From Lachnospiraceae bacterium (GTDB taxonomy: Bacteria; Bacillota; Clostridia; Lachnospirales; Lachnospiraceae): a DNA stretch of 28,177 nucleotides. The stretch covers positions 1 through 28,177 of the forward strand of contig JBNMJJ010000002.1 of assembly GCA_050873745.1 (NCBI GenBank). Direction: 5' to 3'. This document shows positions 1 to 28,177 of this stretch, piece by piece. Under the pieces are notes generated by a model, which did no database searches, was not told the DNA's origin, and saw only the letters and a list, made by a program, of their open reading frames with translations. Position numbers and translations under genes: made by a program. Every line of letters begins with the position of its first letter. The stretch's first letter is position 1.

Positions 1-1
1 C

Positions 2-1739: not shown

Positions 1740-1790
1740 AGGTGGGAATGAGTTGCCTTAGCTTACGGGGCAATTCAGAATGGAGTATAT

Positions 1791-3020: not shown

Positions 3021-3048
3021 AGCACAAGAGGAAGAGAAGCTTGAAGAG

Positions 3049-3088
3049 GCTGTTGCAGTGGCAGGTTTTGTCGTGTAACAGCTTTTTT
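3049..3088 (+). terminator. Weak terminator or attenuator hairpin between clpX and lon
   Basis: GCTGTT (3049-3054) pairs with AACAGC (3077-3082) and is followed by T6 (3083-3088). The loop is large, so the call is weak. Confidence 0.3.
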
Positions 3089-3104
3089 AGAAGGATTTTT
3101 AAAG

Positions 3105-5474: not shown

Positions 5475-5522
5475 GAGAAGAAATTCTGTCTGAATGGCTG
5501 AGTAGCAGCAGAAAGAGGAATT

Positions 5523-6104: not shown

Positions 6105-6119
6105 GGAGGAAAACTTGAC

Positions 6120-8164: not shown

Positions 8165-8180
8165 TCCCAGGGGGAATTTT

Positions 8181-8651: not shown

Positions 8652-8940
8652 TGGAGGCGTGGCTTGAGGGCTATAGTGGGCCGACGAATGCTGGCGGTGT
8701 GAGCGGCTTGGGGGCTGATGTGTGCTGGCGATGTGAGGGGTTTGCCTGGTTGGTTCTGGCGATTTGCTGGATAGAGCTGTGCGGGCTTGGTTGCGGGCAT
8801 ATAGGGAAAAATTCTGTATTGGTGCCCGTAGAATTGGGTTACAGGCTTAAAAAGCACGTTTTTTTATAGAGAATGGGCAAAGAAAGAGGAATCGTATTTC
8901 TATGCCCACAATTCTGGCTATAGCGGGGCAGAGAGAATCG

Positions 8941-9045
8941 AAAAAATTGTGTATGCCCAAAGGCGTTCAGCATTCCTCGTTTTTTACGGTAAAAATACAG
9001 TTTCAGGGGCATGGGAGCCAACTTTTTCTCCATATGCCCTGCCTT
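8941..9045 (+). repeat. Copy 1 of a ~105-bp degenerate direct repeat with an embedded GGGCAT/ATGCCC stem-loop
   Basis: It starts with an A-run followed by TATGCCCAAA (ATGCCC at 8953-8958). A T6 tract at 8980-8985 starts 28 nt after the start of the TATGCCC word. GGGCAT lies at 9007-9012 and ATGCCC at 9034-9039. The anchor spacings of 54 and 27 nt are identical to copy 2. The hairpin lies just 3' of the minus-strand nuclease gene and may act as its terminator. Confidence 0.5.
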
Positions 9046-9063
9046 ATCTATTTACTTATCTTT

Positions 9064-9843
9064 CTATAGAAAATATTCCTTAACAATTTTCTCAACTGCA
9101 TCCATGCTTAAAGGCTTTTCTTTGGTTTCATAGGTGGTAATTAGCTGATGAGTGGGGATAATTCCCTCTGCGGCATAAAGATTAAGTTTGGAAAAGGCCA
9201 GTTTGGAATAGGACGGGTCGTCCATTAATCCGAAATGTTCCCAGTAGAATTCACAACCTGTCTGCGGATGGCGTATGGTGAAATCGGGATAGACGACTGC
9301 CTGGCCTAATGGAAGAGAAGATTCATATCGGAAAGGCAGTTTGTTCATGTGCAAAACGCAGGCAATCATTGCCTCAGACTTGGAGCGGACAAGGTGGCCG
9401 GAAATAGTTTTATGAATAAGATGCTCGGGATAATTGGGATTCTGTTCATAAGGAGAATTCATCCAGAGGCACAGTTCTTCCGACAGGGGATGGAAATAGG
9501 GGGAAAGAAGTTCCTGGTAGGCGGGGGAATGGAATAATTTTCTGTGCTTTTGTTCCTGGTGAGCGGCACAGTGCCTGAGATAAAAGTCGATGGCTTTCTT
9601 TTCCTGGAGAATATCTTCATACAGCAGGGTTAAATATTTTCTGGCGGCTAACTGCTCGGCAAGATAGCGCTTTTTCTTGGGAAGATAAGTCTGTTTCTTA
9701 CCATCGCTGTTGTACCATTTATAATGGTTGGTATTGCGGGTGCAAACAAGTTTTCCGGGAGGAAGAGAAGCAAGCTGGTTCTGTATGGCCTGTAGTTCTT
9801 CAGTTAATCTTAGTTTTTCGGTAAGCATTCGCTCGTAAATCAT
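9064..9843 (-). CDS. PD-(D/E)xK (TnsA-N/restriction-endonuclease-like) nuclease-fold protein with an N-terminal coiled coil; function unknown
   Basis: ATG is preceded by AAGGAGG. The C-terminal half reads VRSKSEAMIACVL ... VYPDFTI ... EFYWEHFG, a Ser-x-Ser-Glu / PDF / E-x-x motif order like TnsA-N/Vsr-type nucleases. The fold assignment is inference. Confidence 0.55.
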   Translation of the reverse strand: MIYERMLTEKLRLTEELQAIQNQLASLPPGKLVCTRNTNHYKWYNSDGKKQTYLPKKKRYLAEQLAARKYLTLLYEDILQEKKAIDFYLRHCAAHQEQKHRKLFHSPAYQELLSPYFHPLSEELCLWMNSPYEQNPNYPEHLIHKTISGHLVRSKSEAMIACVLHMNKLPFRYESSLPLGQAVVYPDFTIRHPQTGCEFYWEHFGLMDDPSYSKLAFSKLNLYAAEGIIPTHQLITTYETKEKPLSMDAVEKIVKEYFL

Positions 9844-9884
9844 GTGTATAACCTCCTTAGTTTGTTAAAGTGCCATTCATTACA

Positions 9885-9893
9885 ATTATAACA
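9885..9893 (-). promoter_or_regulatory. Extended -10 promoter element (TGTTATAAT) for the nuclease-fold gene
   Basis: The reverse complement of 9885-9893 reads TGTTATAAT, about 40 nt upstream of the ATG at 9843. The -35 region is weak (TTTTAT). Confidence 0.4.
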
Positions 9894-10153
9894 GAATGTA
9901 TAGAGTAATAAAAGTGGATTTTTTCGACGACGCACAGAGGTGTACTTGGGAGGGATAGATTGCAGAAGGGCGTAAAGAAATAGTAAAGTTTAAAAGGGCA
10001 TATACAAAGAAATTGCCTGTTACTGCCCTTGAAAGCGTAGAATTAGAGCTGTTGAGGTCTGATTTTAGCTTGTTTTTCCTGCAATGAGGGCATAGAGAGA
10101 AAAAGGGAACATCACTGCCCTGCAGGAAGATGACAAAGGGGATGAGGGAATAA

Positions 10154-10258
10154 AAAAATTTCTATATGCCCAAATTGGTGTACATTTTATATTTTTTCCA
10201 GGGAAATAGGCGTTTTCATGGGCATGACAAATGATTTATTTTTTGTATGCCCGATGGA
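10154..10258 (+). repeat. Copy 2 of the ~105-bp degenerate direct repeat
   Basis: ATGCCC lies at 10166-10171, T6 at 10193-10198, GGGCAT at 10220-10225 and ATGCCC at 10247-10252. The offset to copy 1 is a constant 1213 nt for all four anchors. My hand alignment gives roughly 55-60 percent identity between anchors. Confidence 0.5.
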
Positions 10259-10570
10259 AAGCCTAGGGGACAAGAACCAGCTAACATGGGGCAGGTCAAC
10301 AATCAAGCCGCAGCTAATGTAGAAATAAGCCAATGTGGAAGCAAGCCAGTTACCAAGCCCGGCAGCCAGTACGAAGGAAGGCATGATGCAAAATTTCAGC
10401 CAGCATAATGCCAAGTTCCGGTCAGCCGAAAGTAAGTTTAGCATGAGCCATGACAATAAATAAATCTAAGAAGAAATGAAGGGAAGGAATTGAAAAGCTG
10501 TTCTACATGTGTTAAACTTTGAAGGATTAGAAAAAAGAACAGGCTTTCCAGTCTGGGTTTGGAGGAAATC

Positions 10571-10624
10571 ATGGAAGCATACAAGCAGGAATTTATCGAA
10601 TTTATTTCTATGTTCCATTGTTGA
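10571..10624 (+). pseudogene. pyrE: Orphan 5' fragment of an orotate phosphoribosyltransferase-like gene
   Basis: GGAGG (10561-10565) lies 5 nt before the ATG. MEAYKQEFIEFI resembles the conserved PyrE N-terminus (E. coli MKPYQRQFIEFA, recalled from memory). Similarity stops at about 10606 and a stop codon follows after 17 codons, at the point where the composition turns AT-rich. Confidence 0.4.
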
Positions 10625-10986
10625 AGGTTAGAAATATCGATTTTCCTCGTATTTATGCGGTTTAGCCGATTTTCGGTATAAGAGAAAGTTATCGTAACTT
10701 ATCGCCATTTGGCACAGTTTGATAGAAAAATGGAACAGAAAATGGCACAGTAAACCATTAAGAAAAGCATAGTATAATTTAATATTGGGACACCTACATA
10801 AGTCCATAATCAGTTATAGCAATATGATTGATTGTGGGCTTATTTTTGTGCCTGAATTTATTAAGTGAAATTTACGCAGGTATAATAAAACGTTTGTATT
10901 AGCCACACAGAGCGTTAGGGTTCTAATTATCTGCGCTTTGAAAACGTTTTTATTGGCAAAATATTATAAAAATAGTAGGAGGAGAG

Positions 10987-11406
10987 ATGTTAGAAGCATT
11001 GACGGTAAATGATATGTCAAACCGCATATTAGAAAGAGAAGAATTTTCCAATGATATGATTAAAAAGAACTACAAGAGGGAGATGATTAGGTTGGTGTTG
11101 AATGCTTATATGGAAGAAATGAAATTGGCATTTATTGATGGGGAAAGGGTTTGTTTGCCTGGTATCGGTACACTTATTCCCGAACTACTAATTCCAGAAG
11201 GATTCTATTATAATTTACCAGCGTGTAATAAAAAGGATATTGCCCCACCATATACAAATCTTAGATTTTCACGCAATCATAATCTTAAAAACGATATGAA
11301 TAGGAAATTACGAGAAAATATTGAAAATAAAACTATGGGATTGGAATATTTACCATTCACAGATGAACAAGTAGACGCATTAAAAGAATGTGGGTATATC
11401 AAATAA
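10987..11406 (+). CDS. Divergent DNABII (HU/IHF)-fold protein
   Basis: A strong RBS, AGGAGG, ends 5 nt before the ATG. VCLPGIGTLIPE ... YNLP ... PPYTNLRFSRNHNLKNDMN follows the HU pattern (V-L-GFGtF ... NP ... P ... v-F-s-LK). Confidence 0.5.
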   Translation: MLEALTVNDMSNRILEREEFSNDMIKKNYKREMIRLVLNAYMEEMKLAFIDGERVCLPGIGTLIPELLIPEGFYYNLPACNKKDIAPPYTNLRFSRNHNLKNDMNRKLRENIENKTMGLEYLPFTDEQVDALKECGYIK

Positions 11407-11494
11407 GGGGTAAGAAAAAGTGTAAAATTATGGGTTAGTTACATAATGCTGCAATATTATATGTAGTTGAATCCGCAGAAAGGAAATAGTGAAT

Positions 11495-11932
11495 ATGGCA
11501 AAACACATTAGTAATATGGACGAATTAGCAAAGGCATTACAGCCTACAATGGTGGGTTTGGTAAATCAGATGGCAAATGAAGTATACAAAACTTTGAATG
11601 GTTTTTTAAATGATTACTACACAGGATGGACACCTTCGAGTTATCGTAGAACAAAAGATTTTCTTTATTCAGCAGTAAAAACAGAAGCAAAGATGGTAGG
11701 GAGTAAATGCGTAGCATCTGTATACATAGATTATGATTCAATGAATGATTATGTAAATGCTACGGGGTATCAGGTGGCTACCTGGGCGAATACAGGCTAT
11801 CATGGGGGATTATCAGTCAACCATAAACCCCATGTATGGGATGATACGATAGATAATACCATTAATAACGGTAGTTTGTTAAAATCAGCAGTCGAGTATT
11901 TAAAGAGCAAAGGATTTTCAGTAAGAGTATAA
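11495..11932 (+). CDS. Hypothetical protein (mobile-element associated)
   Basis: The open frame has coding-like composition. ATG 11495 is preferred over the track's GTG at 11489. I recognise no family. Confidence 0.55.
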   Translation: MAKHISNMDELAKALQPTMVGLVNQMANEVYKTLNGFLNDYYTGWTPSSYRRTKDFLYSAVKTEAKMVGSKCVASVYIDYDSMNDYVNATGYQVATWANTGYHGGLSVNHKPHVWDDTIDNTINNGSLLKSAVEYLKSKGFSVRV

Positions 11933-11949
11933 AAGAAGGAGAATTACAT

Positions 11950-12246
11950 ATGGCAATAACTAAAACTGAATTTATAAACAGGATGGCAAAAAAGAGCGGC
12001 ATTACAAATGTAGAAGCGAACAAGAGAACAGATACATTCATAGAAACGCTTATAGGCTGCCTGGAAGAAGATGGGGCAGTAAAATTTGTCGGATTTGGTA
12101 AATTTGAACTAAAGACTGTAAAAGCAAGAATGGGCAGGAATCCCCAGAATGGCAAGGAGTGTATGATACCAGAGCATAAAAAGGTAAAGTTTTATGCGAG
12201 CGAAGGTCTGTCTCAAAGAATGAAAGAATCGGAGGATAAGGATTAA
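11950..12246 (+). CDS. HU-family DNA-binding protein
   Basis: AAGGAG RBS. It has canonical HU features: MAITKTEFINRMAKK, FVGFGKFELKTVKARMGRNPQNGKECMIPEHKKVKF. Confidence 0.85.
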   Translation: MAITKTEFINRMAKKSGITNVEANKRTDTFIETLIGCLEEDGAVKFVGFGKFELKTVKARMGRNPQNGKECMIPEHKKVKFYASEGLSQRMKESEDKD

Positions 12247-12416
12247 TGAATAAAGTGTCACATTGCAGCGAATGCGAATATCTGAAAATATATAATTGTG
12301 TATACAAGAATTATTACTGTGACAATGAGGACAGGACAGATGATATGGGTAAACTTGGTGTAGACTATCTACCAAAGACAAGCCCTGAATGGTGTCCATT
12401 GAGAGAAAAGGAGTAA
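12246..12416 (+). CDS. Small Cys-rich protein (56 aa), below the ORF-track size cutoff
   Basis: A TAATG stop/start overlap joins it to the HU gene. It translates as MNKVSHCSECEYLKIYNCVYKNYYCDNEDRTDDMGKLGVDYLPKTSPEWCPLREKE, with CxxC plus three further Cys. It is followed 6 nt later by the next gene. Confidence 0.5.
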   Translation: MNKVSHCSECEYLKIYNCVYKNYYCDNEDRTDDMGKLGVDYLPKTSPEWCPLREKE

Positions 12417-12422
12417 TGACAG

Positions 12423-12707
12423 ATGCAATTTAAGGAATTAGAGTGGAAAGATATTATATCAGATGGTGTATTTGTATGCAGCACTTGTGGAATAAATTTA
12501 TGCGGATGGATTAAGATTGAATTCCGTATCAATCATGAACTGAAAGAAAATAAATATTATCTGTATTCTTTTGGTAAAGGCGGTATGAGGAGATTGGGGT
12601 CTGAGAAGTATGATTCTGTGGAATCGGCTAAGAATGCCGCATACAGGACATATAATAATGAGATGCAGAGAATAAAGAAAGCTGTTGATTTTCTGGTAAT
12701 TGATTAA
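12423..12707 (+). CDS. Hypothetical protein
   Basis: An RBS (AAAAGGAG) precedes the ATG. It is 94 aa with a CxxC pair. I recognise no family. Confidence 0.5.
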   Translation: MQFKELEWKDIISDGVFVCSTCGINLCGWIKIEFRINHELKENKYYLYSFGKGGMRRLGSEKYDSVESAKNAAYRTYNNEMQRIKKAVDFLVID

Positions 12708-13301
12708 AGGTGGTAATGTGATGAATTTAACATGAAATCGTGTTGAGTGAAATCTGAATGGAATTTTCTCTTTAGTAAAAATTATACATATTGAAATTCA
12801 AGAAATATCTTTAATTCAATAAGTGCGATTCTGTACATATTTTCAATATAAAGAAAACTGAATATTTGAAATGAAAATATTATGATGCTTCGGAAAAGTT
12901 TACCGATGCTATTTGAATATTAAGGACTGAATGAAATGTTCAGTCTTATTTACAATTCAAAAAGTCAACATTTCTAATTAGCGGTTAAAATAAAAAGAGA
13001 ATATACAAATGGATGATGTGTAATGGGAATTGTGGTCACATTAGAAAACCGTTGTTCAAATGGAGAAATGTAATTATGTGAATTCCTGCTATGGGATGTC
13101 ACAATGTAGAAAAAAAGAAATTTAAAAAGAGAAGTATTATTTTGATGATTTAGTGGAGATTGCTCAATTATTAAACGGAAGGAATAATTATATGAGAAAA
13201 AGATATTACAACTATGATTTAGAAGAATGAATAATACAAAGTAGAAAAGTAAATAGAGAAGATTTATCAAACCGTAAGTCAGATGTGGAACCTCGTTAGA
13301 G

Positions 13302-14868: not shown

Positions 14869-15463
14869 ATGGCGATTGTTATTACAAATGGAAATCATTA
14901 TGTTACATATACAGACAGTGGAGCAACGAAGAGAACCACGGATATAAATAATGCTTATCAGTTCTCTACTGTTGATGAAGCTATAAAGGGCATGAAGAAA
15001 GCGGAGGAAAAGACTAAAAACTATTTTGTGTTTGATACTCTTACACAGCGGATTCTATTGGAAGTGGATGACTGCGGATGAAATCAAAGAAATGCGTGAA
15101 AACAAGGTATCATTGTCAATGGTAAAGCGGAATCATAAAGGAAAGATTATCAGAAAATCATATTCAGAGGATACAAGAAAATTAATATATCTTCATGCTG
15201 GTGGACGGTGTGAGTTGTGCGGAAGGAAAATCTTACTTGAAGATATGACAATAGATTATATTACACCGTTAGCAATGGGCGGTAAGGATGATGTGGAAAA
15301 TTTATCTTGTACCTGTTACCCATGCAATTTATTCAAAGGAAACATCTTACCGTCTGACTTCATGGAAAGAATAACGGATATATTCTTATACCAGATGGAA
15401 AGACAGCATAAGGGTAGGTTTGGATGGAAAATTGTACATAATATGTTGAATAAGATGATTTGA
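14869..15463 (+). pseudogene. HNH endonuclease gene, apparently split by a 1-nt insertion near 15055-15061
   Basis: An RBS (AGGAAGGTGG) precedes ATG 14869 (MAIVITNGNHYVTY...DTLTQRIL), which then stops at 15079-15081. The other frame continues YWKWMTADEIKEM ... CELCGRKI ... DYITPLAMGG ... ENLSCTCYPCNLFKGN (HNH). Removing one T from CTATTGG restores QRILWKWMT. Two separate genes cannot be excluded. Confidence 0.55.
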
Positions 15464-15502
15464 TATAATCGGCACTGGTGGAAAATTTTCTGCTGGTGCT
15501 GA

Positions 15503-15531
15503 TTGAAAAAAGACGGAAGGAGTGTTATAAT
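15503..15531 (+). promoter_or_regulatory. Near-consensus sigma-A promoter
   Basis: TTGAAA (15503-15508), a 17-nt spacer containing TG at 15523-15524, then TATAAT (15526-15531). It lies about 35 nt upstream of the HTH gene. Confidence 0.55.
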
Positions 15532-15562
15532 ATACACAGAAATAAATGTATATTATATGTGA

Positions 15563-15889
15563 ATGGAGACTATGATGGTTAATTATAATAAATTGATGGA
15601 AAAACTTAAAGAAAAGGGTATTACTACCTATACTATAAGACAAAAAGCATTGATACCACAAGGCACACTTGCAAAGTTAAAAATGTGTAGCGGTGATTCA
15701 ATGGAAGAGATTGAAAAGAAACTGCAAGAATACAAAGATAGCCACGATGGAAAAGATTTCATGTGTGATGTATCAACAAAGACCATTGAGGACATATGCC
15801 AGTTGTTACAATGCCAGCCACAAGATTTAATTGAATGGAAAGTTGACTTAAAGCCAGAATTAGCATATGAAAACAGATTTAAGGAATAG
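15563..15889 (+). CDS. XRE/Cro-like HTH protein with an internal insertion; start may be 15572 or 15575
   Basis: NYNKLMEKLKEKGITTYTIRQKALIPQGTLAKLK ... TKTIEDICQLLQCQPQDLIEW matches the short HTH family. About 25 aa (SGDSMEEIEKKLQEYKDSHDGKDFM) are inserted between helices. Confidence 0.6.
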   Translation: METMMVNYNKLMEKLKEKGITTYTIRQKALIPQGTLAKLKMCSGDSMEEIEKKLQEYKDSHDGKDFMCDVSTKTIEDICQLLQCQPQDLIEWKVDLKPELAYENRFKE

Positions 15890-15900
15890 GAGGTATGGTT

Positions 15901-16125
15901 ATGACAGCTTTAAGACAGAGTGCAATAATGGAATTGGAAAAGTTGCCGGAAGATAAATTGAGTTTCATAATTCAGATAATGCAAGGTGTAAATGGCTTGT
16001 ATACCGATACTAATTCAGAAAGGAAAGAAGCATTTGCAAGATTGGAACAGTTACGCAGAAAGGGAACTGTTACAGATGATGACGCAGAGTTAGCTTCGTA
16101 TAAGGAAGAAAAGTATGGTAAATAA
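15901..16125 (+). CDS. Type II antitoxin (partner of the PIN toxin)
   Basis: AGGAGG (15888-15893) lies 7 nt before ATG 15901. The track start at 15895 is too close to the RBS. The protein is small and acidic, and it overlaps the PIN gene by 11 nt. Confidence 0.6.
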   Translation: MTALRQSAIMELEKLPEDKLSFIIQIMQGVNGLYTDTNSERKEAFARLEQLRRKGTVTDDDAELASYKEEKYGK

Positions 16126-16528
16126 GATTCTGATTGATACTAATGTATTATTGGATTATCTTCTTGAACGTGAGCCATTTTTTGAGGATGCAAAGGAAGT
16201 TATTTTGTCCTGTACAGATGGAAAAATAAAAGGATGTATAGCAGCACATTCAATTTCTAATATGTTCTTTATATTAAGGAAGGACTACAACGTAAAGGAG
16301 CGCAGAGAAGTATTATTGAATTTGTGCAAAATCTTTGATGTAGAAGGAATAGACAAAGCAAAACTAATATTAGCACTTACCAATGAGGATTTTTCAGATT
16401 TTGAGGATTGCTTACAGACGGAATGTGCAAAGGTATACGGAGCAGATTACATTGTTACGAGAGATGTTTCTGATTACTCCACATCGGAAATAAAGGCAAT
16501 TGAGCCGAAGGATTATTTAGAACTGTAA
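16115..16528 (+). CDS. PIN-domain ribonuclease toxin (VapC-like)
   Basis: ILIDTNVLLDYL carries the first acidic residue. Further acidic residues lie in FFEDAKE, DFEDC and IVTRDVSD. The length is 137 aa. Confidence 0.8.
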   Translation: MVNKILIDTNVLLDYLLEREPFFEDAKEVILSCTDGKIKGCIAAHSISNMFFILRKDYNVKERREVLLNLCKIFDVEGIDKAKLILALTNEDFSDFEDCLQTECAKVYGADYIVTRDVSDYSTSEIKAIEPKDYLEL

Positions 16529-16537
16529 AGCGTGAGA

Positions 16538-16580
16538 AGCACCAGCGGAAGAAATAAGATTTCTTCTGAAGGTGCTTTTT
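16538..16580 (+). terminator. Rho-independent terminator of the HTH-antitoxin-PIN operon
   Basis: AGCACC..GAAGAAAT-aag-ATTTCTTC..GGTGCT is followed by T5 (16576-16580). Confidence 0.65.
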
Positions 16581-16581
16581 C

Positions 16582-18063
16582 GAGACCGTTTCAAGTTTTG
16601 TGTAAACTCAAAAATCTGATATAAGATATGTGAATAGTTACGGAAGGGCAGAGCCGATTTTTTTGGTTCTGCCCTTACCTGCATTATACAGGGATTTTTT
16701 CGCATGTCAACAAAACCTGCATACTTTCAGGCTGCTTTACAGATTCCTGCCTGCAAGACGTTCCTCAAAATAGATTTCCAACTGGGAGTGAATCTGTCCC
16801 CAGTCCTGCCTGTGTCCGGTCCATTTTTTGGTCATGTCCATCATAGCCAGATACAGCATTTTTAAGAGGCTGTCATCTGTTGGAAATACAGTCTTGGATT
16901 TCGTCACTTTCCGGAGCTGCCGGTGAAATCCTTCAATGGCATTGGTTGTATAGATAAGCCTTCTGACGGCTTCCAGATATTTGAAATAAGTGGACAGGGT
17001 TGCCCAGTTATCGTGCCAGGACTTATCTATTTTAGGATATTTATTATTCCATTTGTCTTTAAACCGCTCCAGTTCATTTAAGGCAGTGTCCTCTGTTGGT
17101 GCTGCATATACCCGTTTTAAATCCCCCATCAGGCTTTTGATATCTTTGTAGGAAACAAACTTCGTGGAATTGCGGATTTGGTGGATAATGCACTGCTGTA
17201 TTTCTGTTTTGGGATAGACAGCTTCAATTGCCTGTGGGAATCCGGAAAACCCATCCACACAGGCAATCAGAATGTCTTCCACACCACGGTTTTTTAGTCC
17301 GTTCATGATGGAAAGCCAGAATTTTGCACTTTCATTTTCCCCCACATACATTCCAAGCACATCTTTTCTTCCGTTCATGTCGATACCGAGGGCTATATAG
17401 ACAGCCCTCTTTACAATGCGTCCTTCACTGCGGACATGGTAGTGGATAGCATCCATAAATACCACAGCATAAACTTCTTCCAGAGGACGTTCTTGCCATT
17501 CCTTAACCATTGGGAGAATTTTATCCGTAATCCGGCTTATGGTACTGTCAGAAATATCCATATCATACAGTTCCTTCATGTGGGATTCAATATCTTCGGT
17601 AGTCATGCCTTTGGCATACATGGAAAGAATCTTTTCTTCCATATCCTGTGTCACGGTATTCTGGTACTTTTTGACAAGCTGGGGTTCGTATTCACCATTC
17701 CGGTCACGAGGAATTGCAATATCCATGTCTCCGTAACTGGTATGCATGGTTTTACTGGAATGTCCGTTCCTGCTGTTGTCCGTATCCTTATTCCGGTAAT
17801 CATACTTGGAATAGCCGAGTTCCTCATCCAGTTCTTCATCCAATGCACCTTCCAGAAGTACCGACATCATGTCACGCATAACCGAGTTTACATCGGAACC
17901 GTTTTTGATGCTGATATCCTTATTTTTGAGATAATCACGCATCATTTCTCTCATTGCTGCTTTTTGTGGGCTGTCATTTTTTCTTGCCATAATTAAAACC
18001 TCCAAACTGAGTAATTTTATCTTACATCAGTTTAGAGGTTTACACAAACTTTGGGATAGTCCC
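16582..18063 (-). mobile_element. IS256-family insertion sequence (1482 bp)
   Basis: The imperfect terminal inverted repeats are GAGACCGTTTCAAGTTTTGTGTAAAC (16582-16607) and the reverse complement of 18038-18063, GGGACTATCCCAAAGTTTGTGTAAAC. They end in TTGTGTAAA like the IS256 IRs, as I recall them. They enclose a Mutator/IS256-type transposase gene. Confidence 0.8.
16737..17990 (-). CDS. IS256-family (Mutator-type) transposase
   Basis: It has typical IS256 transposase features: NGHSSKT, PRDRNGE(Y)EPQLV, VFMDAIHY, GMYVGENESAKFW, LIACVDG, YTTNAIEGFHRQLRK. ATG 17990 lies 8 nt after GGAGG and is preferred over the track's TTG at 18005. Confidence 0.92.
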   Translation of the reverse strand: MARKNDSPQKAAMREMMRDYLKNKDISIKNGSDVNSVMRDMMSVLLEGALDEELDEELGYSKYDYRNKDTDNSRNGHSSKTMHTSYGDMDIAIPRDRNGEYEPQLVKKYQNTVTQDMEEKILSMYAKGMTTEDIESHMKELYDMDISDSTISRITDKILPMVKEWQERPLEEVYAVVFMDAIHYHVRSEGRIVKRAVYIALGIDMNGRKDVLGMYVGENESAKFWLSIMNGLKNRGVEDILIACVDGFSGFPQAIEAVYPKTEIQQCIIHQIRNSTKFVSYKDIKSLMGDLKRVYAAPTEDTALNELERFKDKWNNKYPKIDKSWHDNWATLSTYFKYLEAVRRLIYTTNAIEGFHRQLRKVTKSKTVFPTDDSLLKMLYLAMMDMTKKWTGHRQDWGQIHSQLEIYFEERLAGRNL

Positions 18064-18269: not shown

Positions 18270-19154
18270 TTATTCATTCAATTCGTTCATAATACCCTTT
18301 TCAAAATCAGTCAACTTTATTATTTCGACATCATCTTTACCTATAAAGCTTTCTATTAAGTTTAATTGCTCAAATTTATTTCTTACAATAAGAGCATCTT
18401 GTTCGTTAACATAATACCCACTCTGAAAACTACTTATAGCATCTTTAAACTACGAAACCTTTTTTATACCAGTAATTCTTAATGAAACAAACTTAAACAA
18501 ATTATCCAATGTAGTCTTAACCGTCTTTTTATCTATTACTGTGTTGGAAGTAAAAATAAAAACCTTTTCGGTAAAATGTAATATTATTTCCTTTCCATAA
18601 AATGCTTCTTCAAAATCAACATCCTTTTTAATTATTCCAACAGAAGATATTTGCCTCCGTAAGTCCTCATTTTCTGCCTGCAGAAACTCAATTTGTTTCA
18701 GCATTCTTTCTTTCTCTTCATCATTTCCTCTATGCCAACCTGGTCGTTTTATTTCATTCTTCGCTTGCATAATTGCAATTGCTACTTTTCCCATTAAGTC
18801 AGATTGATCTTTCCAAACACTGGCTAATCTATTTCTCATTGCTCTACTCTTAAATTCAGCCAATTTTCCCTTTTTGATATCATCCTTTTCTATTTTATCA
18901 TCATCAACTTCTACAGAATCATCTAACACAAATACTAAAACAGGTATACCTTTATCTATAGCATAATTATATTCCATTTCCGTATAACTAATTCCAGTTG
19001 CTTCATTAACGGAGCCATAACGTTTTCCTAAAATTAAAATATAATAATCACATAAATCAATGACTTTTTTTATTACACTAAATTGTTCGTCATCTGTTGC
19101 TACAAAATTCTCCATGCCGGCCGGAATACAATCTGCCATAAGTAAAATATCCAA
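18270..19154 (-). pseudogene. DUF4062-like (TIR/deoxyribosyltransferase-like fold) protein gene, disrupted
   Basis: CIPAGMENFVATDDEQFSVIKKVIDLCDYYILILGKRYGS matches the DUF4062 core as I remember it. An in-frame TAG at 18450-18452 is followed by 59 more sense codons to TAA at 18270-18272. Upstream the frame stays open to a TAA at about 19221, with no ATG or GTG and only the track's TTG at 19154. Confidence 0.6.
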
Positions 19155-20891: not shown

Positions 20892-20932
20892 AGCCATTTT
20901 AGAGTTATCCGCAAATTTTGTGCTTAAACCTC

Positions 20933-20961
20933 TTGAAACATTTCAAATACAATGGTATTAT
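20933..20961 (+). promoter_or_regulatory. Candidate promoter for a plus-strand small RNA
   Basis: TTGAAA (20933-20938), a 17-nt spacer with TG at 20953-20954, then TATTAT (20956-20961). No ORF with an RBS follows. Confidence 0.4.
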
Positions 20962-20967
20962 AACAAT

Positions 20968-21075
20968 ACAAAAGGAAAGTACCCACTCCAAAGTGGATGC
21001 TCCGAGTTTAGGCTAAGAAATGTCCTTACGGACACCGCCTATCCTGTTGGCAGACAGGATAGGCATTTTTATTTT
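20968..21075 (+). ncRNA. Candidate ~108-nt sRNA convergent with the holin-like toxin gene (possible type I antitoxin)
   Basis: It is bounded by the promoter at 20933-20961 and the terminator at 21037-21075. It would be antisense to the 3' end and 3' UTR of the minus-strand toxin transcript. This is a purely structural inference. Confidence 0.3.
21037..21075 (+). terminator. Rho-independent terminator (11-bp stem, 6-nt loop, T-rich tail)
   Basis: GCCTATCCTGT (21037-21047) pairs with ACAGGATAGGC (21054-21064) and is followed by ATTTTTATTTT. It overlaps the last codons of the minus-strand toxin ORF. Confidence 0.65.
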
Positions 21076-21188
21076 CGCTTGTTGTTTCTCTTATCGAGAA
21101 AGGCAAGCAACGCAACAATTAAGCTACCAAAGAACATCAGCAATGCTAATATTTCAATGAAAATCGATATGATTTCAAAAGCTGTCAT
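21069..21188 (-). CDS. Holin-like small hydrophobic toxin (Hol-Tox-like, 39 aa), absent from the ORF track
   Basis: GGAGGTGG ends 5 nt before the ATG at 21188. The translation is MTAFEIISIFIEILALLMFFGSLIVALLAFLDKRNNKRK: one TM helix plus a basic tail, the pattern of the putative holin-like toxin family of Firmicutes. Confidence 0.65.
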   Translation of the reverse strand: MTAFEIISIFIEILALLMFFGSLIVALLAFLDKRNNKRK

Positions 21189-21279
21189 CAGCGCCACCTC
21201 CCTTCCTATGTATTCCGGCACGCCGGTTTTCATAAACTCGGGAGGCTACCACCCTGTCATGGGTACTTTCCGTAGATGT

Positions 21280-21308
21280 ATTGTAACACGAAGATATATG
21301 AATGGCAA
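21280..21308 (-). promoter_or_regulatory. Sigma-A promoter for the toxin transcript
   Basis: On the minus strand: TTGCCA (reverse complement of 21303-21308), a 17-nt spacer, then TACAAT (reverse complement of 21280-21285). It predicts a ~85-nt 5' UTR. Confidence 0.5.
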
Positions 21309-22027
21309 TTAGTTTTTCGGATTTCATGCAGGTATCATGATACCCCCCTAAACTCAGTATTCACCAAATAATTAGAGCCAACAGGCATAAAGCAATCCCG
21401 GAAACACCCTTTTTATCAGCATTTCCGGGATTTTATCCGTTACTCGAACTCTATTACACATATCATATCTTGTGTCTGACCAGTTTTAAAATCACTAGAT
21501 TTAGTATCTTAAAATTATATAATTTTAACTATCTCAGAGTCCTCAAGGCGCTTTGTAACCCTTTTGTAACCCTGTTGTTATTATAGAATAGTCTGGTGGT
21601 TTTCGCAAGAGGAAAAGTGATTATGTTTCGAACAAATTTTCTATCCAATACTATATAGAATTATCGATGCACAATGCTTTCAATCACCATCCCAAATACA
21701 ATCCGGGCGCACTTTTGCAAGTGCGATCAACTGGTACAATGGTTTTAATGCATTCGCAACTGTAGGTAACCAGTAGTTTAATTTTTCATGCTACTTTCTT
21801 TAATGAGTTCGATAAATACCATTCCCTATCCAATATCAAAATGGTAGTAAACATTCAATAGGTCTTGTAGAAAGTGACCATCTATTGCAGAAAATGGATA
21901 AAAATACAATTTATCTTCTTCCGAAGGCTTGAGCTTCATTGACAGGAATCGTATACTAGAGCGAATTATCTAAAAATAATGTACGATATATTTCTTGTAA
22001 ATATATAAAAACAAAGGAGATTACACC

Positions 22028-22967: not shown

Positions 22968-23001
22968 AACAGTCTTGAAGAATACCTACTTCAAGACTGT
23001 T
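22968..23001. terminator. 13-bp-stem hairpin between the convergent recombinase and SbnA-like genes
   Basis: AACAGTCTTGAAG (22968-22980) pairs with CTTCAAGACTGTT (22989-23001) across an 8-nt loop. TTTGTTGG follows on the plus strand. The 3' arm overlaps the last codons of the minus-strand gene. Confidence 0.5.
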
Positions 23002-23956
23002 TTGTTGGTTGGACTACACCATAAAATCCGGTATCTATTTTATTGCACCATTCTTTGCCATATATTGTGTCTAAATACCTTTCCCCTCTATCCGGAAAAA
23101 TCCCAACTATTGTTCTCGTATCAAAATCAGTTGAATAACCTGTATAATTTTGAATGGCATAGGCTACCGCCCCACTTGAGGCACCTACAACAATCCCCTT
23201 TGATAAGAGCTTATTGCACTCTGATATGGCATCCGCTTCCTCAATAATCATATAATCATCATATTTAGCATGTACTAAATTATGCGGAATTAACCCAGTT
23301 CCGATACCTGAAATATGCTTCTTCCGGTTGCTTGGTTCAAAAATTTGTGAACCCACAATATCAACCGCAACAATTTTACAATCGGGAAATTGTTCTTTTA
23401 TTTTTTGAGATGTACCTGCCAAAGTTCCACAGGTACTAACTGCAACAAATAAATAATCTATTTTTCCCATTTCATTACACAGTTTTTCCCCTAAAGAAAA
23501 ATATGCCTTCCAAACATATTCATTTTCATATTGGTTTGTCCAATATACATTTGTATGATTTATAACATATTCTTTTACAGTCTGTATTCTATCCTGCACA
23601 TAGTTTCCATTTTTGTCTGCTTTACGAGCAACAACAATCTTAGCTCCCAATAATTCGATGATTTTCCTATTTGACTCTGTTATGTTGGGATCAACCACGC
23701 ATATAAAAGAGTTCCCTTTTATTTTACACATTCCTGCCAAAGCAATTCCAAAATTGCCCGACGATGATTCTATAATGACTGTATCATTTTTTATTATCCC
23801 ATCGTTGTATGCATTTTCTATTAAGTACCTTGCTGCCCTGTCTTTAACACTGCCAAACAGATTATTACCTTCTATTTTTGCATAATACTCTATTTTATTG
23901 TTTACCTTTAAAAGCGGCGTATTGCCAATCATATCCGTAATATTTTGTATTCTCAT
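22991..23956 (-). CDS. PLP-dependent cysteine-synthase-fold enzyme, SbnA-like (2,3-diaminopropionate pathway type)
   Basis: GGAGG lies 5 nt before the ATG. PLP-Lys context is GSVKDR (K38, 23843-23845), the Asn loop is SSSGNFG and the phosphate loop is VGASSGA. Long stretches parallel S. aureus SbnA as I recall it: IIESSSGNFGIALAGMCKIKG..CVVDP, YWTNQYENE, FPDRGERYLDTIY. Confidence 0.75.
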   Translation of the reverse strand: MRIQNITDMIGNTPLLKVNNKIEYYAKIEGNNLFGSVKDRAARYLIENAYNDGIIKNDTVIIESSSGNFGIALAGMCKIKGNSFICVVDPNITESNRKIIELLGAKIVVARKADKNGNYVQDRIQTVKEYVINHTNVYWTNQYENEYVWKAYFSLGEKLCNEMGKIDYLFVAVSTCGTLAGTSQKIKEQFPDCKIVAVDIVGSQIFEPSNRKKHISGIGTGLIPHNLVHAKYDDYMIIEEADAISECNKLLSKGIVVGASSGAVAYAIQNYTGYSTDFDTRTIVGIFPDRGERYLDTIYGKEWCNKIDTGFYGVVQPTKQS

Positions 23957-24007
23957 AAAATCCTCCGAGGATAATAAGAAATTATCCGTTGGAAACAGGT
24001 GAAAATT

Positions 24008-26962
24008 ATGGATAAAACATGGAAACTATTTGAGAGTGTAGCCTATGAGTATGTTTCACAGTTGTATAAAAAAACTATAAAAAGTGAACATACTGTAGAT
24101 TCGCATGATTCAGGATATGATGGCATATGGATCATTCCCTCTGACAATAAAGCATTATATAAGAAAATAATGATGGAAGCCAAATACAGAGAATCGCAGT
24201 CTTCATTACCATTAAATGATTGCGCAAAGGCTATTATTATTGCTTTTAATTCTTCTGCTAATAAATTGTATATTGCTACTAATATAGAATTAGCACCACA
24301 AACCAAAGAACAAATTAAAAATTTTAATAATAGAACAGCATTAGCAATAGTAAGCGTAGACAATATAAAACTTAAAAATTATATTCATAATAATAAAACA
24401 TATTTGGTAAAAGCCTGTAAGACAAAAGAATCTCGCTTATCTGATTTAGAAAGTAAAATTGTTTCCCTGCCCACAAAAGAAAATAATCAAATAAACAAAT
24501 CTTTGACAAAAGACACTTGTTTACTTGATACTCAAAGGCAGGAACTCATATCAAATATAGTGAATGAGGTCTGTATTTCAAACAAGAAAATTATTCTTTC
24601 CGGTGCTGAGGGAATCGGGAAAAGTGTACTCATTGATAAAATATGTGATGAATTACAGAAAAAGAAGTTTGACACACAAAAAATTGATTTGAGTTTGTGC
24701 ACTAGTTCCAGAATATTGTATTTAAAAGTCTTAGAAGCAGTGTGGGGTGTTTCATTAGATGCCATATTGAAAGATACAGATTTAAGCACATATATAGATA
24801 GATTAATAGCAATAAAGGAGAAGTGTATTGATCCTGATATCTCAAATGCTGTTAAGCATATTATGGTAATGAATATTTATGAGTATGAAGGAGCAAATGA
24901 TATTTATCGGTATTATTTACTCAAGTATTTAAACGCTATGCTACAAGATAAAAGTGGATATTTTCATTTGGCAGTTTTTTTTGAAAATGTGGATTCGCTT
25001 TCTATAGAATGTGTAGACTTTTTCCTAGAACTTATTGAGCAAATGAAAAATAATGGAATAAGGATTCTTCTTGAACTCAGAAAGCCGTTTATGCTGACGG
25101 ATGATATTAAGAGTTCTAATGATTACTATAAAATAATCAAGAAAAACGCTCTTGTACATTCCGTGGAGCCATTATCTGAAGACTTAATTTATAAATTTAT
25201 TAGAAAATATATTAAATTGGATAAAGATTCCTGTAAACAATTCAGTGATATGCTGGAAGACAACCCGCTTAAAATTAAAAACGCATTAGAGTATCTTAAA
25301 CAGACTTCAGTAAATGTAAATGTTAGGGAACTGAAGAAGATGTCAAATGAGGAACGCGAAATTTTTTGGAATGATCGAGGTATTGATGCCAATAGAGAAG
25401 CAGTTTCTCTGATTTCAAAATACAGAACAAATTCTTTAATCTCAGAATTGCTAGAAATGGCATTGCTTTTGAACGGCGAAATTCCCTATTTACTGTTAAG
25501 CGATTATTGGGGAACGCAGACAGATGAAATATATGAGTTTGCCATTGATAGTAGATTGTTTAAGCTTAAAGATAATAATCTTCAGTGCGCCCATTTGCGG
25601 TTTTTATCAGCAATAAAGACAACTTTGCAACCATTAGAACGAATGAAAGCAGCACAAAAATTATTGCCCATTATACAAGAGAAAAGTGATGCCAAGTATC
25701 CATTTATCCAGTTAGAATTACTATATATATTAGAACAAGATAATAATATTGGTGATTATACAATGTATGTTATGTCGCTGTATGAAGACTCGCAACAATA
25801 CAAACAATCAATAGCAGTTGGCAAAAAATATATTGAAAGAGTAGATAATAAAAGGATACTTTCAACTAGCGAAAAAAGTATGAGGGTACATGTTTTAATA
25901 AAAATGTTACATTGTATATATGAACTTCATGCAGATAATGAAAAGGAGTATGAATATTTCTATCAAATAGCAAAAGAATCAATTATACTACACGTTCCTG
26001 ATTATACATCCTGCAAGGAATGGTATGAATATTCTTTATTCACATGGCATAAAAAATTTATAGCCGGATTGTTTGATGACGCATATCGGATTAGTAAAGA
26101 ACTATATGATAATTTGCCAAATATATTTTGTATTTTTGATTTGAACGATGATATCGCAGGGCGTATATATTCTGCACATGGATTATCTTTAAAAATGCTT
26201 GAAGGAGGGGATGCCGCCACAAATCTTTTTAAAGAAGGAATTGAAAAATATCCTGAGTCATATAACGCTCGCGCCGCCTATTTATCGCAAGAAGGAAATC
26301 GCCTGCTTAAGGAAAAACCATTAGAGGCAGTAAAAAAATATAGTGAACTTTTAGATACTGTAAAAGGGAAAGCCTATCCATTTTTGGAAATTATACATAC
26401 AAGAATTGATATTGCTATGTCTAATTTCTTGGCACAAGAATATGACATTGCAAAAATATGGGCTGAGGAAGGATTAAGTATTGCCTCTACACTAGGTATT
26501 CATATTCAAAAGGGAAGGGCATTAAATATATTAGGTTGCTGTAAAGTGGCTAATGGCAAATATATAGAAGGGTTGAATCTTCTTAAAGAAAGTGATTTTT
26601 ATTTGGAGCTTTCAGGAGCCGCTATTTATAGATGGAGAGTCCTGCTGAACCAAGCAAGTGTATTATTCGACAAAGGCGATAAAAAGGAAGCAAAAGTCCT
26701 GATTCTACAGGTAGTAAATATATTGTTGTCTGATTTTACCAAGAAAATAAAATCAGACAACATATCAGTGCCCTATCAAAGTTTATTATTGATATTAATG
26801 TATTTACATGAGCTAGAAGAGGACGTAGAAAGCATTTTAATCCAGCTTGAAGGTATTTCGATACGGAATGATTTTAACCAGCTTTGTCAGACAATAAATT
26901 GGAAAAATTGCTTTCAGAATAAGGTAAAATACTGTAACGGCGTAGTATTAGTGACTGGCTGA
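24008..26962 (+). CDS. Mrr-like PD-(D/E)xK nuclease / AAA_16-type STAND NTPase / TPR-like repeat protein (Avs-like architecture)
   Basis: AGGTG (23997-24001) lies 6 nt before ATG 24008; the track starts at GTG 23999. The N-terminus reads FESVAYEYVSQLY...DSGYDGIW...IMMEAKYR...IATN, which is Mrr_cat-like (D41 at 24119-24121, E60-A-K62 at 24176-24184). Walker A is GAEGIGKS (24602-24625). The Walker B region LAVFFENVDSLSIECVDFFLELI (from 24968) resembles AAA_16 (vlDDlhwaD.aSl.lL). The C-terminal ~400 aa is helical and repeat-like. Confidence 0.75.
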   Translation: MDKTWKLFESVAYEYVSQLYKKTIKSEHTVDSHDSGYDGIWIIPSDNKALYKKIMMEAKYRESQSSLPLNDCAKAIIIAFNSSANKLYIATNIELAPQTKEQIKNFNNRTALAIVSVDNIKLKNYIHNNKTYLVKACKTKESRLSDLESKIVSLPTKENNQINKSLTKDTCLLDTQRQELISNIVNEVCISNKKIILSGAEGIGKSVLIDKICDELQKKKFDTQKIDLSLCTSSRILYLKVLEAVWGVSLDAILKDTDLSTYIDRLIAIKEKCIDPDISNAVKHIMVMNIYEYEGANDIYRYYLLKYLNAMLQDKSGYFHLAVFFENVDSLSIECVDFFLELIEQMKNNGIRILLELRKPFMLTDDIKSSNDYYKIIKKNALVHSVEPLSEDLIYKFIRKYIKLDKDSCKQFSDMLEDNPLKIKNALEYLKQTSVNVNVRELKKMSNEEREIFWNDRGIDANREAVSLISKYRTNSLISELLEMALLLNGEIPYLLLSDYWGTQTDEIYEFAIDSRLFKLKDNNLQCAHLRFLSAIKTTLQPLERMKAAQKLLPIIQEKSDAKYPFIQLELLYILEQDNNIGDYTMYVMSLYEDSQQYKQSIAVGKKYIERVDNKRILSTSEKSMRVHVLIKMLHCIYELHADNEKEYEYFYQIAKESIILHVPDYTSCKEWYEYSLFTWHKKFIAGLFDDAYRISKELYDNLPNIFCIFDLNDDIAGRIYSAHGLSLKMLEGGDAATNLFKEGIEKYPESYNARAAYLSQEGNRLLKEKPLEAVKKYSELLDTVKGKAYPFLEIIHTRIDIAMSNFLAQEYDIAKIWAEEGLSIASTLGIHIQKGRALNILGCCKVANGKYIEGLNLLKESDFYLELSGAAIYRWRVLLNQASVLFDKGDKKEAKVLILQVVNILLSDFTKKIKSDNISVPYQSLLLILMYLHELEEDVESILIQLEGISIRNDFNQLCQTINWKNCFQNKVKYCNGVVLVTG

Positions 26963-28177
26963 TTATTGGAATATCTGCAGCAGGATGTCACTTCTCTTTT
27001 TTAATGATGCGGAAATAGGGTTTAAACGTGCTGCTTCTGATACCAATTCTTTGCAAATACCTAAAAGGAGCCATCCTCCAAGTATTGAGTTCGAAATATG
27101 CAAAATAGGAACTGCTTTAAGTATATTTTCCCATAAATTTATTGTTTCTTTTGAAACATAGTTTTTTGCTACAAAAGTAAGAAGAAAGTCAGCATAATCA
27201 ATTCCAGGCCAGCCTGGATGAAGTTTTTCGTTATCCAGTAAAATAGTCTGCGGATTAAAAATAAGATTTTTGTAATCGAATCCGCCGTGATTTAATACTG
27301 GTTGCAGATTAGATTCTTCCAACGAAAGCGTGCTTGCTACATGAAATACTTTTGGATATATTGACATAATAAGCTTCTGTTGTACTGTGGATAAAAGGTT
27401 GTAATAATGGTTCCAACGCAATAATTCTACCCGGAGGGAATAATCATTATAATAATATTGCCATGGATAATTAGAGGATACTATTTTTTTGTACAAATTA
27501 TCAATTTTTTGATAATTTGTTTTTTGTTGTATTAGTTTATTTAGATTTTGCATGCATTTTGGGTCAGAAAGAGGATTACTCTCATAAAAATTATTTATCG
27601 CATGTAGTGCATGGGTTAATTGCTGTTCCAAAGGAAGTTCTATGTTCTCATATTTCTCCCTAATGAGTGCATGTCTTGGTCCATGCTTTCCTAACAACGC
27701 TGGAATTCCGTGAAATGCAGTTGCTCCAAGTTCGGCACGGTAACGCTTTATGGAACTAATAACTGTTGGTTGTTCTTTTTCTTCTGACCAGAGGGAAGAG
27801 TAATTCATTCGGTCATAGGGCATTTTTATAAAGTAATTTCTATTAGAGCATTCTACAGTCCAGCTTGCAGAAGAACTATTTGAGCAATTAACAATGGAAA
27901 TAACATCTGTAATTCTGTTATCATGCATAATCTGTAAAATATCAGATTTGTCAACCAAATACATATTAAATGGATAAGTTAATGGTATTCTGAAATTAGG
28001 ATTTAATTCAGGCTTTTTATGAGAGTCTTCCTTAAATTCATTGCCTTCAATTGCAGCTGTATAGGAGGCTAAATGTTTATTTCTAAAGTTCCAGTTTTTT
28101 AAAGTGTCTAGCCCAGTCTGTCGGGCTTGCTGCCCCATACAGTTTGACAGGTAAGGTTGTTTTATAAAGTGTTCCAT
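26963..28177 (-). CDS. Protein-kinase-like fold (APH/CotS-type phosphotransferase) protein with an atypical catalytic loop
   Basis: The ATG sits at the very window edge, so upstream context is unseen. The beta3-like segment is NYFIKM. The catalytic loop VLNHGGFDYKNLIF (27266-27289) corresponds to hHGDxxxxNhh. ILLDNEKL...GWPGIDYADFLL corresponds to the APH motif hhDxE....g.p..DhA. Confidence 0.5.
   Translation of the reverse strand: MEHFIKQPYLSNCMGQQARQTGLDTLKNWNFRNKHLASYTAAIEGNEFKEDSHKKPELNPNFRIPLTYPFNMYLVDKSDILQIMHDNRITDVISIVNCSNSSSASWTVECSNRNYFIKMPYDRMNYSSLWSEEKEQPTVISSIKRYRAELGATAFHGIPALLGKHGPRHALIREKYENIELPLEQQLTHALHAINNFYESNPLSDPKCMQNLNKLIQQKTNYQKIDNLYKKIVSSNYPWQYYYNDYSLRVELLRWNHYYNLLSTVQQKLIMSIYPKVFHVASTLSLEESNLQPVLNHGGFDYKNLIFNPQTILLDNEKLHPGWPGIDYADFLLTFVAKNYVSKETINLWENILKAVPILHISNSILGGWLLLGICKELVSEAARLNPISASLKKRSDILLQIFQ

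Follow-up and report, generated by a model that had tools for sequence, protein, structure and literature searches.

We analysed a 28,177-nt stretch of DNA from a Lachnospiraceae bacterium (contig JBNMJJ010000002.1, positions 1 to 28,177), hereafter the window, which ends inside a gene for a GT4 glycosyltransferase fused to a kinase-fold domain (GT4-kinase). Together with the gene facing it, which encodes a STAND protein, the GT4-kinase gene very probably rides on a recombinase-bounded invertible segment of about 5.4 kb, and comparison with relatives makes positions 23970-28177 its first 4.2 kb; the window does not reach the second recombination site. The related loci (L-numbers) and homologous proteins (P-numbers) compared with the window reveal a pair of sites, an adjoining recombinase gene and one element in both orientations between unchanged flanks. 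As a whole, these data are likely best explained by an invertible two-gene segment working as an orientation switch.

The segment is found in both orientations

Between L018 and L019 a 5.5-kb segment is 99.9 % identical, and its two flanks (2.6 kb and 1.3 kb) have traded places as reverse complements, leaving 26 bp of overlap at either junction. L014 and L015 likewise present opposite orientations between the same flanks (segment 99.9 % identical). L045 and L049, which share their chromosomal context and encode an identical STAND protein, differ by inversion of a segment that is 99.95 % identical and bounded by a 60-nt repeat. The flank composed of the recombinase gene and a gene for an SbnA-family enzyme adjoins the STAND gene in the window and the GT4-kinase gene in L007, L012 and L006; the window and L007 are 83.6 % identical in nucleotide sequence over this flank. 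A second type of cargo, described below, is also seen both ways (L026 vs L027, L026 vs L032).

Isolates L008 and L010 carry the segment as a contig of its own, which in L010 stops inside the site at both ends, and L002 has the recombinase-side flank at both contig ends. Most STAND homologues are located on contigs of 5.35-5.63 kb from dozens of assemblies, those of clonal isolates such as L010 included. Contig breaks at the sites fit a mixture of orientations because those repeats are far shorter than assembly k-mers. We also considered a circular plasmid as the source of the 5.4-kb contigs and rejected it, the contig ends being inverted rather than direct repeats. A nucleotide search found no match of the region in plasmids.

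Table 1. Features of the window, and positions of the second cargo type in related loci
Feature	Position	Strand	Remarks
IS256/Mutator-type transposase	16737-18005		
DUF4062 protein	18450-19154		
Tyrosine recombinase, 310 aa	22028-22960	+	Pfam Phage_integrase 3.7e-42
Hairpin, 13-bp stem, 8-nt loop	22968-23001		between the convergent recombinase and SbnA genes; terminator-like match
SbnA-family pyridoxal phosphate (PLP) enzyme, 321 aa	22991-23956	-	outside the predicted invertible segment
Site GATAAT-AAGAA-ATTATC (17 bp)	23970-23986		predicted left boundary of the invertible segment; sole motif match in the window
STAND protein, 984 aa	24008-26962	+	Mrr-like nuclease + P-loop NTPase + TPR
Hairpin, 17-bp stem	26724-26762	-	within the STAND coding sequence; ~200 nt beyond the stop codon of GT4-kinase
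GT4-kinase, C-terminal 404 codons of ~789 aa	26963-28177	-	gene cut by the window end
Cargo 2	L026 37-3565; L032 5450-8985; also L036-L043		beside the SbnA-recombinase module

Recombination sites and recombinase

The site in the window is the 17-mer GATAATAAGAAATTATC (Table 1). In 22 loci the two genes are bracketed by an inverted pair of the form GATAAT-N5-[A/G]TTATC, and 10 different spacers occur (AAGAA, AAGGA, ATCTA, TAGCA, CAGGA, ATGCA, CCCAG, AAAGA, TAGAA and TTTTA). Within a locus the left and right sites are reverse complements of each other, apart from one outer base in L001 and L017, and their spacers co-vary. Such co-varying inverted pairs have the appearance expected of tyrosine-recombinase crossover sites. 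Across loci the sites lie 20-100 nt upstream of start codons. From the comparison with L006, the partner site of the window should lie beyond its end, at about 29364-29380, as GATAATTTCTTATTATC.

A homologue of the recombinase (47-86 % identical) is located at most about 300 bp from one site in 12 of the 12 loci with enough flank. The protein in the window scores 246 bits against TIGR02224 (XerC), below the cutoff, and this XerC/XerD-like recombinase is presumed to be the invertase of the adjoining segment. In L009 (Lachnospiraceae bacterium 3-2) a perfect 1906-nt inverted repeat (8074-9979 and 15357-17262) encloses both cargo genes, each of its arms containing an identical recombinase gene and having GATAATAAGAAATTATC as its inner end. 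The ~1.1 kb upstream of the window's recombinase gene (20900-22027) revealed no convincing gene, recombinase fragment or second site, and the sole open reading frame (ORF) there, 20920-21312, has no Pfam match.

Some loci carry further sites and recombinase remnants. The L009 repeat also duplicates a gene fragment upstream of the recombinase, with further recombinase fragments at 7091-7447 and 4376-4480. Extra sites with other spacers stand in tandem just outside the segment in L021 (5934-5980), others are found on the far side of the recombinase gene in L015 (7293) and L017 (12636), and C-terminal recombinase fragments adjoin sites in L014, L015 and L022. The extra sites and fragments hint at nested or multi-segment arrays similar to shufflons. 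In L045/L049 (4922-4980, 10356-10414) recombination is at a new outer site, GATAATTTTTAGTTATC, and a degraded AAGAA-type site, GGATAAGAAATTAT, persists about 40 nt inside the 60-nt repeat, which looks like site turnover.

A conserved convergent pair

The ORF map and the sequence bear out the initial annotation as to its coordinates, the gaps of 0 and 51 bp and the hairpin with its 13-bp stem. The STAND gene and the convergent ORF meet without a base between them, the STAND TGA occupying 26960-26962 and the opposing TAA starting at 26963. Read directly from the sequence, 51 bp separate the SbnA ATG (23956) from the STAND ATG (24008). We consider ATG 24008, and not GTG 23999, the likely STAND start, because every homologue is 984 aa long and this ATG has a ribosome-binding site (AGGTG) ahead of it.

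The same annotation had grouped the SbnA, STAND and kinase-fold genes into a three-gene cassette with the hairpin at 22968-23001 as one boundary. Instead, the conserved unit is the STAND and GT4-kinase pair with SbnA outside it, and we place the boundary at the 17-bp site, within the 51-bp gap. The hairpin, which overlaps the SbnA stop codon, is probably the shared terminator of the recombinase and SbnA genes. In every locus with DNA past the STAND stop codon, the next gene is a convergent GT4-kinase gene that ends 0-19 nt away, and these abutting stops are kept across clades (L001-L020, L022-L024, L045-L052 and L054; 33-93 % protein identity). Neighbourhood conservation had been proposed as the check on co-inheritance of the three genes: STAND and GT4-kinase co-localise over that whole range of identity, whereas SbnA does so only in the clade of the window.

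The unusual gene packing probably follows from the STAND gene and its tail-to-tail neighbour riding on a ~5.4-kb segment flipped by the recombinase; that the window has SbnA and GT4-kinase on one strand reflects nothing more than the way the segment points at present. The segment is present in dozens of gut assemblies from human, pig, rabbit and mouse. Some copies are decayed: in L001/L002, L020 and L023 STAND and/or GT4-kinase are broken into 2-5 frames, and the pair is thus not kept everywhere.

The STAND protein

The STAND protein is composed of an Mrr-like PD-(D/E)xK region (about aa 1-140), a Walker A motif (G199-S206) and a TPR array (about aa 540-960). In an alignment of 12 STAND homologues both the Walker A motif GxxGxGKS and the motif H33-D34...D38...E57-x-K59 are invariant. 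The N-terminus of homologue P0075 matches Pfam Mrr_cat at 23.4 bits (cutoff 21), and two further homologues reach 15.8-16.7 bits; all three matches span nearly the whole profile. The N-terminus of the window protein itself has no Pfam match, Mrr_cat being reached by homologues only. Its direct matches are weak P-loop ones, NACHT and AAA_16, both below threshold.

The AlphaFold model of the protein has a predicted local distance difference test (pLDDT) score of 82, and its best fold match in the PDB is the STAND-TPR protein 6mfv (E = 3.7e-10), followed by TPR proteins. A PDB sequence search gave nothing usable, and exact-sequence look-ups found no match for the window STAND protein with either start, nor for the window SbnA. 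Taken together, "STAND nuclease", the name proposed initially, seems a fair label for a predicted Mrr-like nuclease joined to a STAND NTPase and TPRs in the layout of Avs proteins. The nuclease part of the name is supported through the homologues (Mrr_cat, invariant D38/E57/K59), and not by any match of the window protein.

The GT4-kinase

The kinase-fold ORF was initially counted as the third gene of the cassette. It seems complete at 404 aa because the window end (28175-28177) falls on an internal Met codon; the window in fact stops within a longer GT4-kinase fusion. In P0001 (88 % identical) and P0009 (89 %) the reading frame continues through MEHFIKQPYLS from an upstream GT4 glycosyltransferase, and the full-length gene encodes 789-799 aa in L006, L007, L009 and L011, whose 789-aa ORFs are 82-96 % identical. 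In L004/L005 the kinase part is a separate 407-aa ORF from the same Met, one base after a 391-aa GT4 ORF.

For the region beyond the window, the GT4 domains PF13439 and PF00534 match the homologous 789-aa proteins of L009 and L010. This half is closest to MshA (109 bits) and sucrose-phosphate synthase, and in the PDB to 6kih and 3c4q. Both of these enzymes use phosphorylated acceptors. The kinase-fold label of the C-terminal half finds weak, consistent support: Pfam APH matches below threshold (E = 9e-4 in P0005), and the best 12 Foldseek matches of a kinase-domain model all have the choline/aminoglycoside-kinase fold (probability 0.72-0.99, TM-scores 0.3-0.4). They include LicA, YihE, APH(3'), N-acetylhexosamine kinase, MTR kinase and the spore kinase YtaA. 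The model is poor (pLDDT 60) and the fold match is therefore supportive only. The motifs NHGGFDYKN and LLDNEKL are conserved in this domain, and a PDB sequence search with it gave nothing usable.

SbnA and the different invertible cargos

The SbnA-family enzyme matches TIGR03945 over its full length at 343.4 bits (equivalog cutoff 349.95) and PDB 5d84 (SbnA) at 4.9e-64. Among loci with the STAND and GT4-kinase pair its gene is found in the window, L007 and L012, plus L006, which holds the first bases of the gene only. Genes for close SbnA homologues (65-92 % identical) without exception face the recombinase gene tail to tail and have their start codons 13 nt from a site, the distance also seen in the window between the SbnA ATG and 23970-23986. 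Homologues beyond that clade are at most 50 % identical and are canonical SbnA proteins. We found no SbnB-type dehydrogenase gene of a diaminopropionate or siderophore cluster in the island of the window or in the neighbourhoods of 20 related loci, and no siderophore or nonribosomal peptide synthetase (NRPS) genes nearby.

The recombinase-SbnA module borders three different invertible cargos. Apart from the STAND and GT4-kinase pair, it is found with cargo 2 (L026-L043, 3.5 kb; Table 1), in which a STAND-like P-loop/TPR protein of 823 aa, lacking a nuclease domain, is convergent with a PylC-like ATP-grasp enzyme; BLASTP detects no similarity between the STAND proteins of the window and of cargo 2. 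Cargo 3 (L044 1656-7987, 6.3 kb) consists of a methyltransferase and a serine hydroxymethyltransferase (SHMT) facing a TagD/RfaE-like cytidylyltransferase and a 770-aa protein that has no family match. The sites of L026 and L044 are the same 17-mer as in the window. Since SbnA recurs beside varied cargos with the same site, we consider it part of the fixed flank of a multi-cargo platform. A looser link between STAND proteins and metabolite chemistry is conceivable, two unrelated STAND-like proteins each being paired with a small-molecule enzyme near SbnA, and so is one between SbnA and the cargo enzymes.

In L026 the starts of the ATP-grasp and SbnA genes make a 19-nt palindrome around the site, the first codons being common to both. 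In L044 the inverted repeat continues inward for 28 nt, with another site-like motif in it, and about 1.4 kb of that cargo (6521-7970) has no called gene.

Promoters and terminators

In the window clade the distance from site to start codon is 21 nt for STAND and 31 nt for GT4-kinase. This leaves no room for an internal promoter, so transcription must begin at or outside the site. We found the extended -10 motif TGNTA[TC]AAT reading inward in 9 of 34 flanks, and then in exactly one outer flank; for comparison, the background of 0.014 per 130 nt corresponds to about 0.5 expected over the 34 flanks. In L016 and L017, which are one lineage in opposite orientations, the flank with the motif is beside STAND in L016 and beside GT4-kinase in L017. 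That the GATAAT arm of the site might serve as a -10 element was considered and could not be supported. Neither could read-through from the cargo into SbnA, against which the hairpin at 26724-26762 argues in the window clade.

This hairpin is kept, with wobble and loop changes, in 8 of 8 loci of the clade of at least 79 % identity (z = -4 to -6.6) and is absent from the clades at about 40 %. It is a candidate embedded terminator or RNA-stability element and may end the GT4-kinase transcript. A second hairpin is found at 27203-27218 (+), and both lie inside coding regions, 200-240 nt past the stop of the partner. The two may act as embedded terminators giving overlapping 3' untranslated regions (UTRs). 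Overlapping 3' ends, which the initial annotation had deduced from the zero-base junction, are in this respect plausible: no terminator fits between the stops.

A proposed orientation switch

We propose that the neighbouring XerC/D-like recombinase would recombine the two inverted 17-bp sites and so flip the ~5.4-kb segment. A single outer flank would carry a strong inward promoter, and orientation would decide which gene is transcribed, resulting in an either/or phase switch resembling the G segment of phage Mu. The either/or character is suggested because the strong promoter motif reads in from one flank only; we judge the chances to be about even that orientation gives such expression. Because no terminator fits between the abutting stops, the transcript of the ON gene would run antisense into the OFF gene. 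In the orientation of the window GT4-kinase would be ON and STAND OFF or low, since STAND faces the SbnA flank, which is without such a motif; SbnA and the recombinase would be fixed flank rather than cargo. The likeliest benefit would be that a population hedges its bets, some cells making an intracellular anti-phage sensor of the Avs type and others an enzyme modifying the envelope or small molecules. We offer anti-phage or surface bet-hedging as a tentative role, with a probability below one half.

A number of observations weigh against this explanation. The evidence for inversion consists of assemblies and not reads, and the isolate contig breaks could also be explained by long flanking repeats such as those of L009. 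Inversion in L009 would moreover change nothing, the recombinase being in each 1906-nt repeat arm. The window contains a single site, the second one being deduced from relatives 90-93 % identical. The promoters are motif matches only: L011, L015 and L045 have no clear motif on either flank, and promoter-like matches in the window are at chance level (15 vs 14.1 expected). The hairpin at 26724-26762 may halt transcription before the whole partner gene is crossed. As for the proteins, no PADLOC-DB defence hidden Markov model (HMM) matches the STAND protein at E <= 0.01, and the canonical HxD Asp is replaced by Gly in the kinase-fold domain (NHGGFDYKN).

Alternative explanations

One alternative, proposed in the initial annotation, is that SbnA, STAND and the kinase form one co-inherited system coupling small-molecule chemistry to a STAND nuclease, for example with phosphorylated serine feeding SbnA, inversion being incidental. 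The fixed position of the SbnA clade beside cargos that include small-molecule enzymes (GT4-kinase, PylC-like ATP-grasp, or SHMT with methyltransferase and cytidylyltransferase) speaks for it, as do the two unrelated STAND-like ATPases that each have an enzyme partner and the presence of homoserine kinase type II among the fold matches of the kinase-domain model (pLDDT 60). We nevertheless regard it as unlikely. STAND and GT4-kinase are always together, and this part of the proposal stands, whereas SbnA is absent from most such loci (missing in L001, L009, L011, L013-L020 and L045-L054). No SbnB-like partner occurs in any neighbourhood listed, the position of SbnA relative to the pair shifts with orientation and, if expression is either/or, STAND and the enzyme would not be made together. 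The other initial proposal, that a defence gene was inserted into a former minus-strand operon of SbnA and the kinase-fold gene, would explain why both are on the minus strand in the window with STAND between them. It is the least probable of the explanations considered here and is refuted by the related loci. STAND and GT4-kinase form a strictly conserved pair that no homologous locus splits, even at 33 % identity, and SbnA is nowhere the direct, co-oriented neighbour of GT4-kinase in a locus that lacks STAND. In L007 and L012 the genes for this SbnA and for GT4-kinase diverge from either side of the site, head to head.

Alternatively, the recombinase may swap two-gene cargos between a fixed promoter flank and a recombinase(-SbnA) flank, with inversion as a by-product. 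Three unrelated cargos (window, L026, L044) are bounded by GATAATAAGAAATTATC and a recombinase-SbnA flank 83.5 % identical to that of the window, the unit occurs in many genomic contexts, and extra sites with other spacers and recombinase fragments are present in L015, L017, L021 and L009. However, neither a circular or excised cargo nor a donor element was seen among these loci, and both orientations of one cargo are found repeatedly within a lineage, so inversion is at least frequent. Exchange as the main function of the paired sites is improbable in our view; it is compatible with the inversion switch and does not exclude it. It is also conceivable that programmed inversion is mimicked by faulty assembly or by a transposon with inverted repeats at its ends, as the long perfect inverted repeats of L009 cannot be oriented by assemblers and many loci are short metagenomic contigs. 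We consider this very improbable. The repeats are just 25-60 nt in L018/L019, L014/L015 and L045/L049, the contigs in question were assembled from independent samples and run across both junctions for kilobases into identical flank, and a transposon would change flanks rather than swap them.

The inversion switch and the exchange of cargos could be parts of one platform. We hypothesize, as a possibility that is rather doubtful at present, a so far undescribed, integron-like flip-and-swap platform in gut Lachnospiraceae, in which a pair of inverted sites would lie between a fixed flank with the promoter and another with the recombinase gene and, in some cases, SbnA. Convergent pairs, typically a STAND-type sensor ATPase versus a small-molecule or envelope enzyme, would be toggled and also exchanged between strains by double-site recombination, with SbnA supplying a common precursor to the enzyme cargo. 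Such a platform, if real, would give bacteria a new means of both phase variation and exchange of genes for immunity and surface modification.

Relation to known systems

In the Mu G and P1 C segments, short inverted sites bound convergent alternative tail-fibre genes, a fixed promoter lies outside and the recombinase gene (Gin or Cin) adjoins. The element described here is analogous in being a multi-kilobase segment with short inverted sites, tail-to-tail genes and an adjoining recombinase gene. It differs in its XerC/D-like tyrosine recombinase, Gin and Cin being serine invertases. The alternatives in Mu are moreover paralogous tail-fibre genes with a constant 5' part, whereas here two unrelated complete genes are exchanged and the sites lie in the 5' UTR.

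Invertons of tyrosine recombinases combine an adjoining recombinase with short inverted repeats, occur in both orientations in natural populations, and are enriched in gut bacteria and defence loci (PMC9881135, PMC7672463). The segment shares the adjoining tyrosine recombinase, the short inverted repeats and the presence of both orientations with hsdS invertons, the R64 shufflon (Rci) and invertible promoters of gut bacteria. Unlike those, which invert promoters a few hundred bp long or rearrange parts of a single coding sequence, it spans 3.5-6.3 kb with entire unrelated genes. Within the searchable literature we found no comparable case in a survey of gene-altering inversions (PMC9881135), in inverton profiling (PMC11892184) or by full-text searches. 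The switch is seemingly undescribed and common in gut Lachnospiraceae; the inversion logic is known, and what is new is the size, the swapping of entire unrelated genes and, relative to Mu, the class of the enzyme.

The STAND protein resembles Avs/AVAST proteins in its N-terminal Mrr-like nuclease effector, central STAND P-loop NTPase and C-terminal TPR sensor, and one relative lies in a defence island. Unlike Avs, it matches no PADLOC model, has an obligate convergent GT4-kinase partner and is on an invertible segment, and its anti-phage activity is a prediction. PADLOC gave no match for any of the four genes (recombinase, SbnA, STAND, kinase ORF). By TIGR03945 and PDB 5d84 the SbnA-family enzyme is most similar to SbnA of the staphyloferrin B, L-2,3-diaminopropionate pathway. 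In contrast to the SbnA/SbnB pathway, its score is just below the equivalog cutoff, SbnB, siderophore and NRPS genes are absent nearby, and its close clade (>=65 %) is found only beside this recombinase and site.

Inverton surveys have mostly been aimed at short promoter flips or inversions within genes. A whole-gene switch of 3.5-6.3 kb would escape such surveys. Should expression depend on orientation, an Avs-like sensor would be subject to phase variation and would not be made alongside a glycosyltransferase-kinase, with consequences for what it costs to carry such defences and for variation of phage receptors. Short-read assemblies systematically break at such loci, and a contig of about 5.4 kb that keeps recurring can help to recognise them. 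The 17-bp site and its recombinase are potential genetic tools for Clostridia.

Genomic context

Core genes (trigger factor/tig, clpP, clpX, lon, engB, truA) with 45 % GC occupy positions 1-8650 of the window, and VanZ and an AI-2E transporter are in the first ~10 kb. From about 9 kb the GC content drops to about 33 % in an accessory island that includes genes for an ECF sigma factor, HNH, HTH, a PIN toxin and MerR/TipAS proteins as well as the transposase and DUF4062 genes of Table 1. No tRNA was found in the window, and a nucleotide search of positions 1-21000 against phages returned short matches only.

Among the relatives, L001 has a defence island (6994-12730) with ToxN, a 1075-aa KAP NTPase and an AAA_21 and RloB (AbiL-like) pair, L011 has toxin-antitoxin genes as neighbours, and L045 lies within a teichoic-acid-like locus. 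These contexts fit a role in phase variation or defence.

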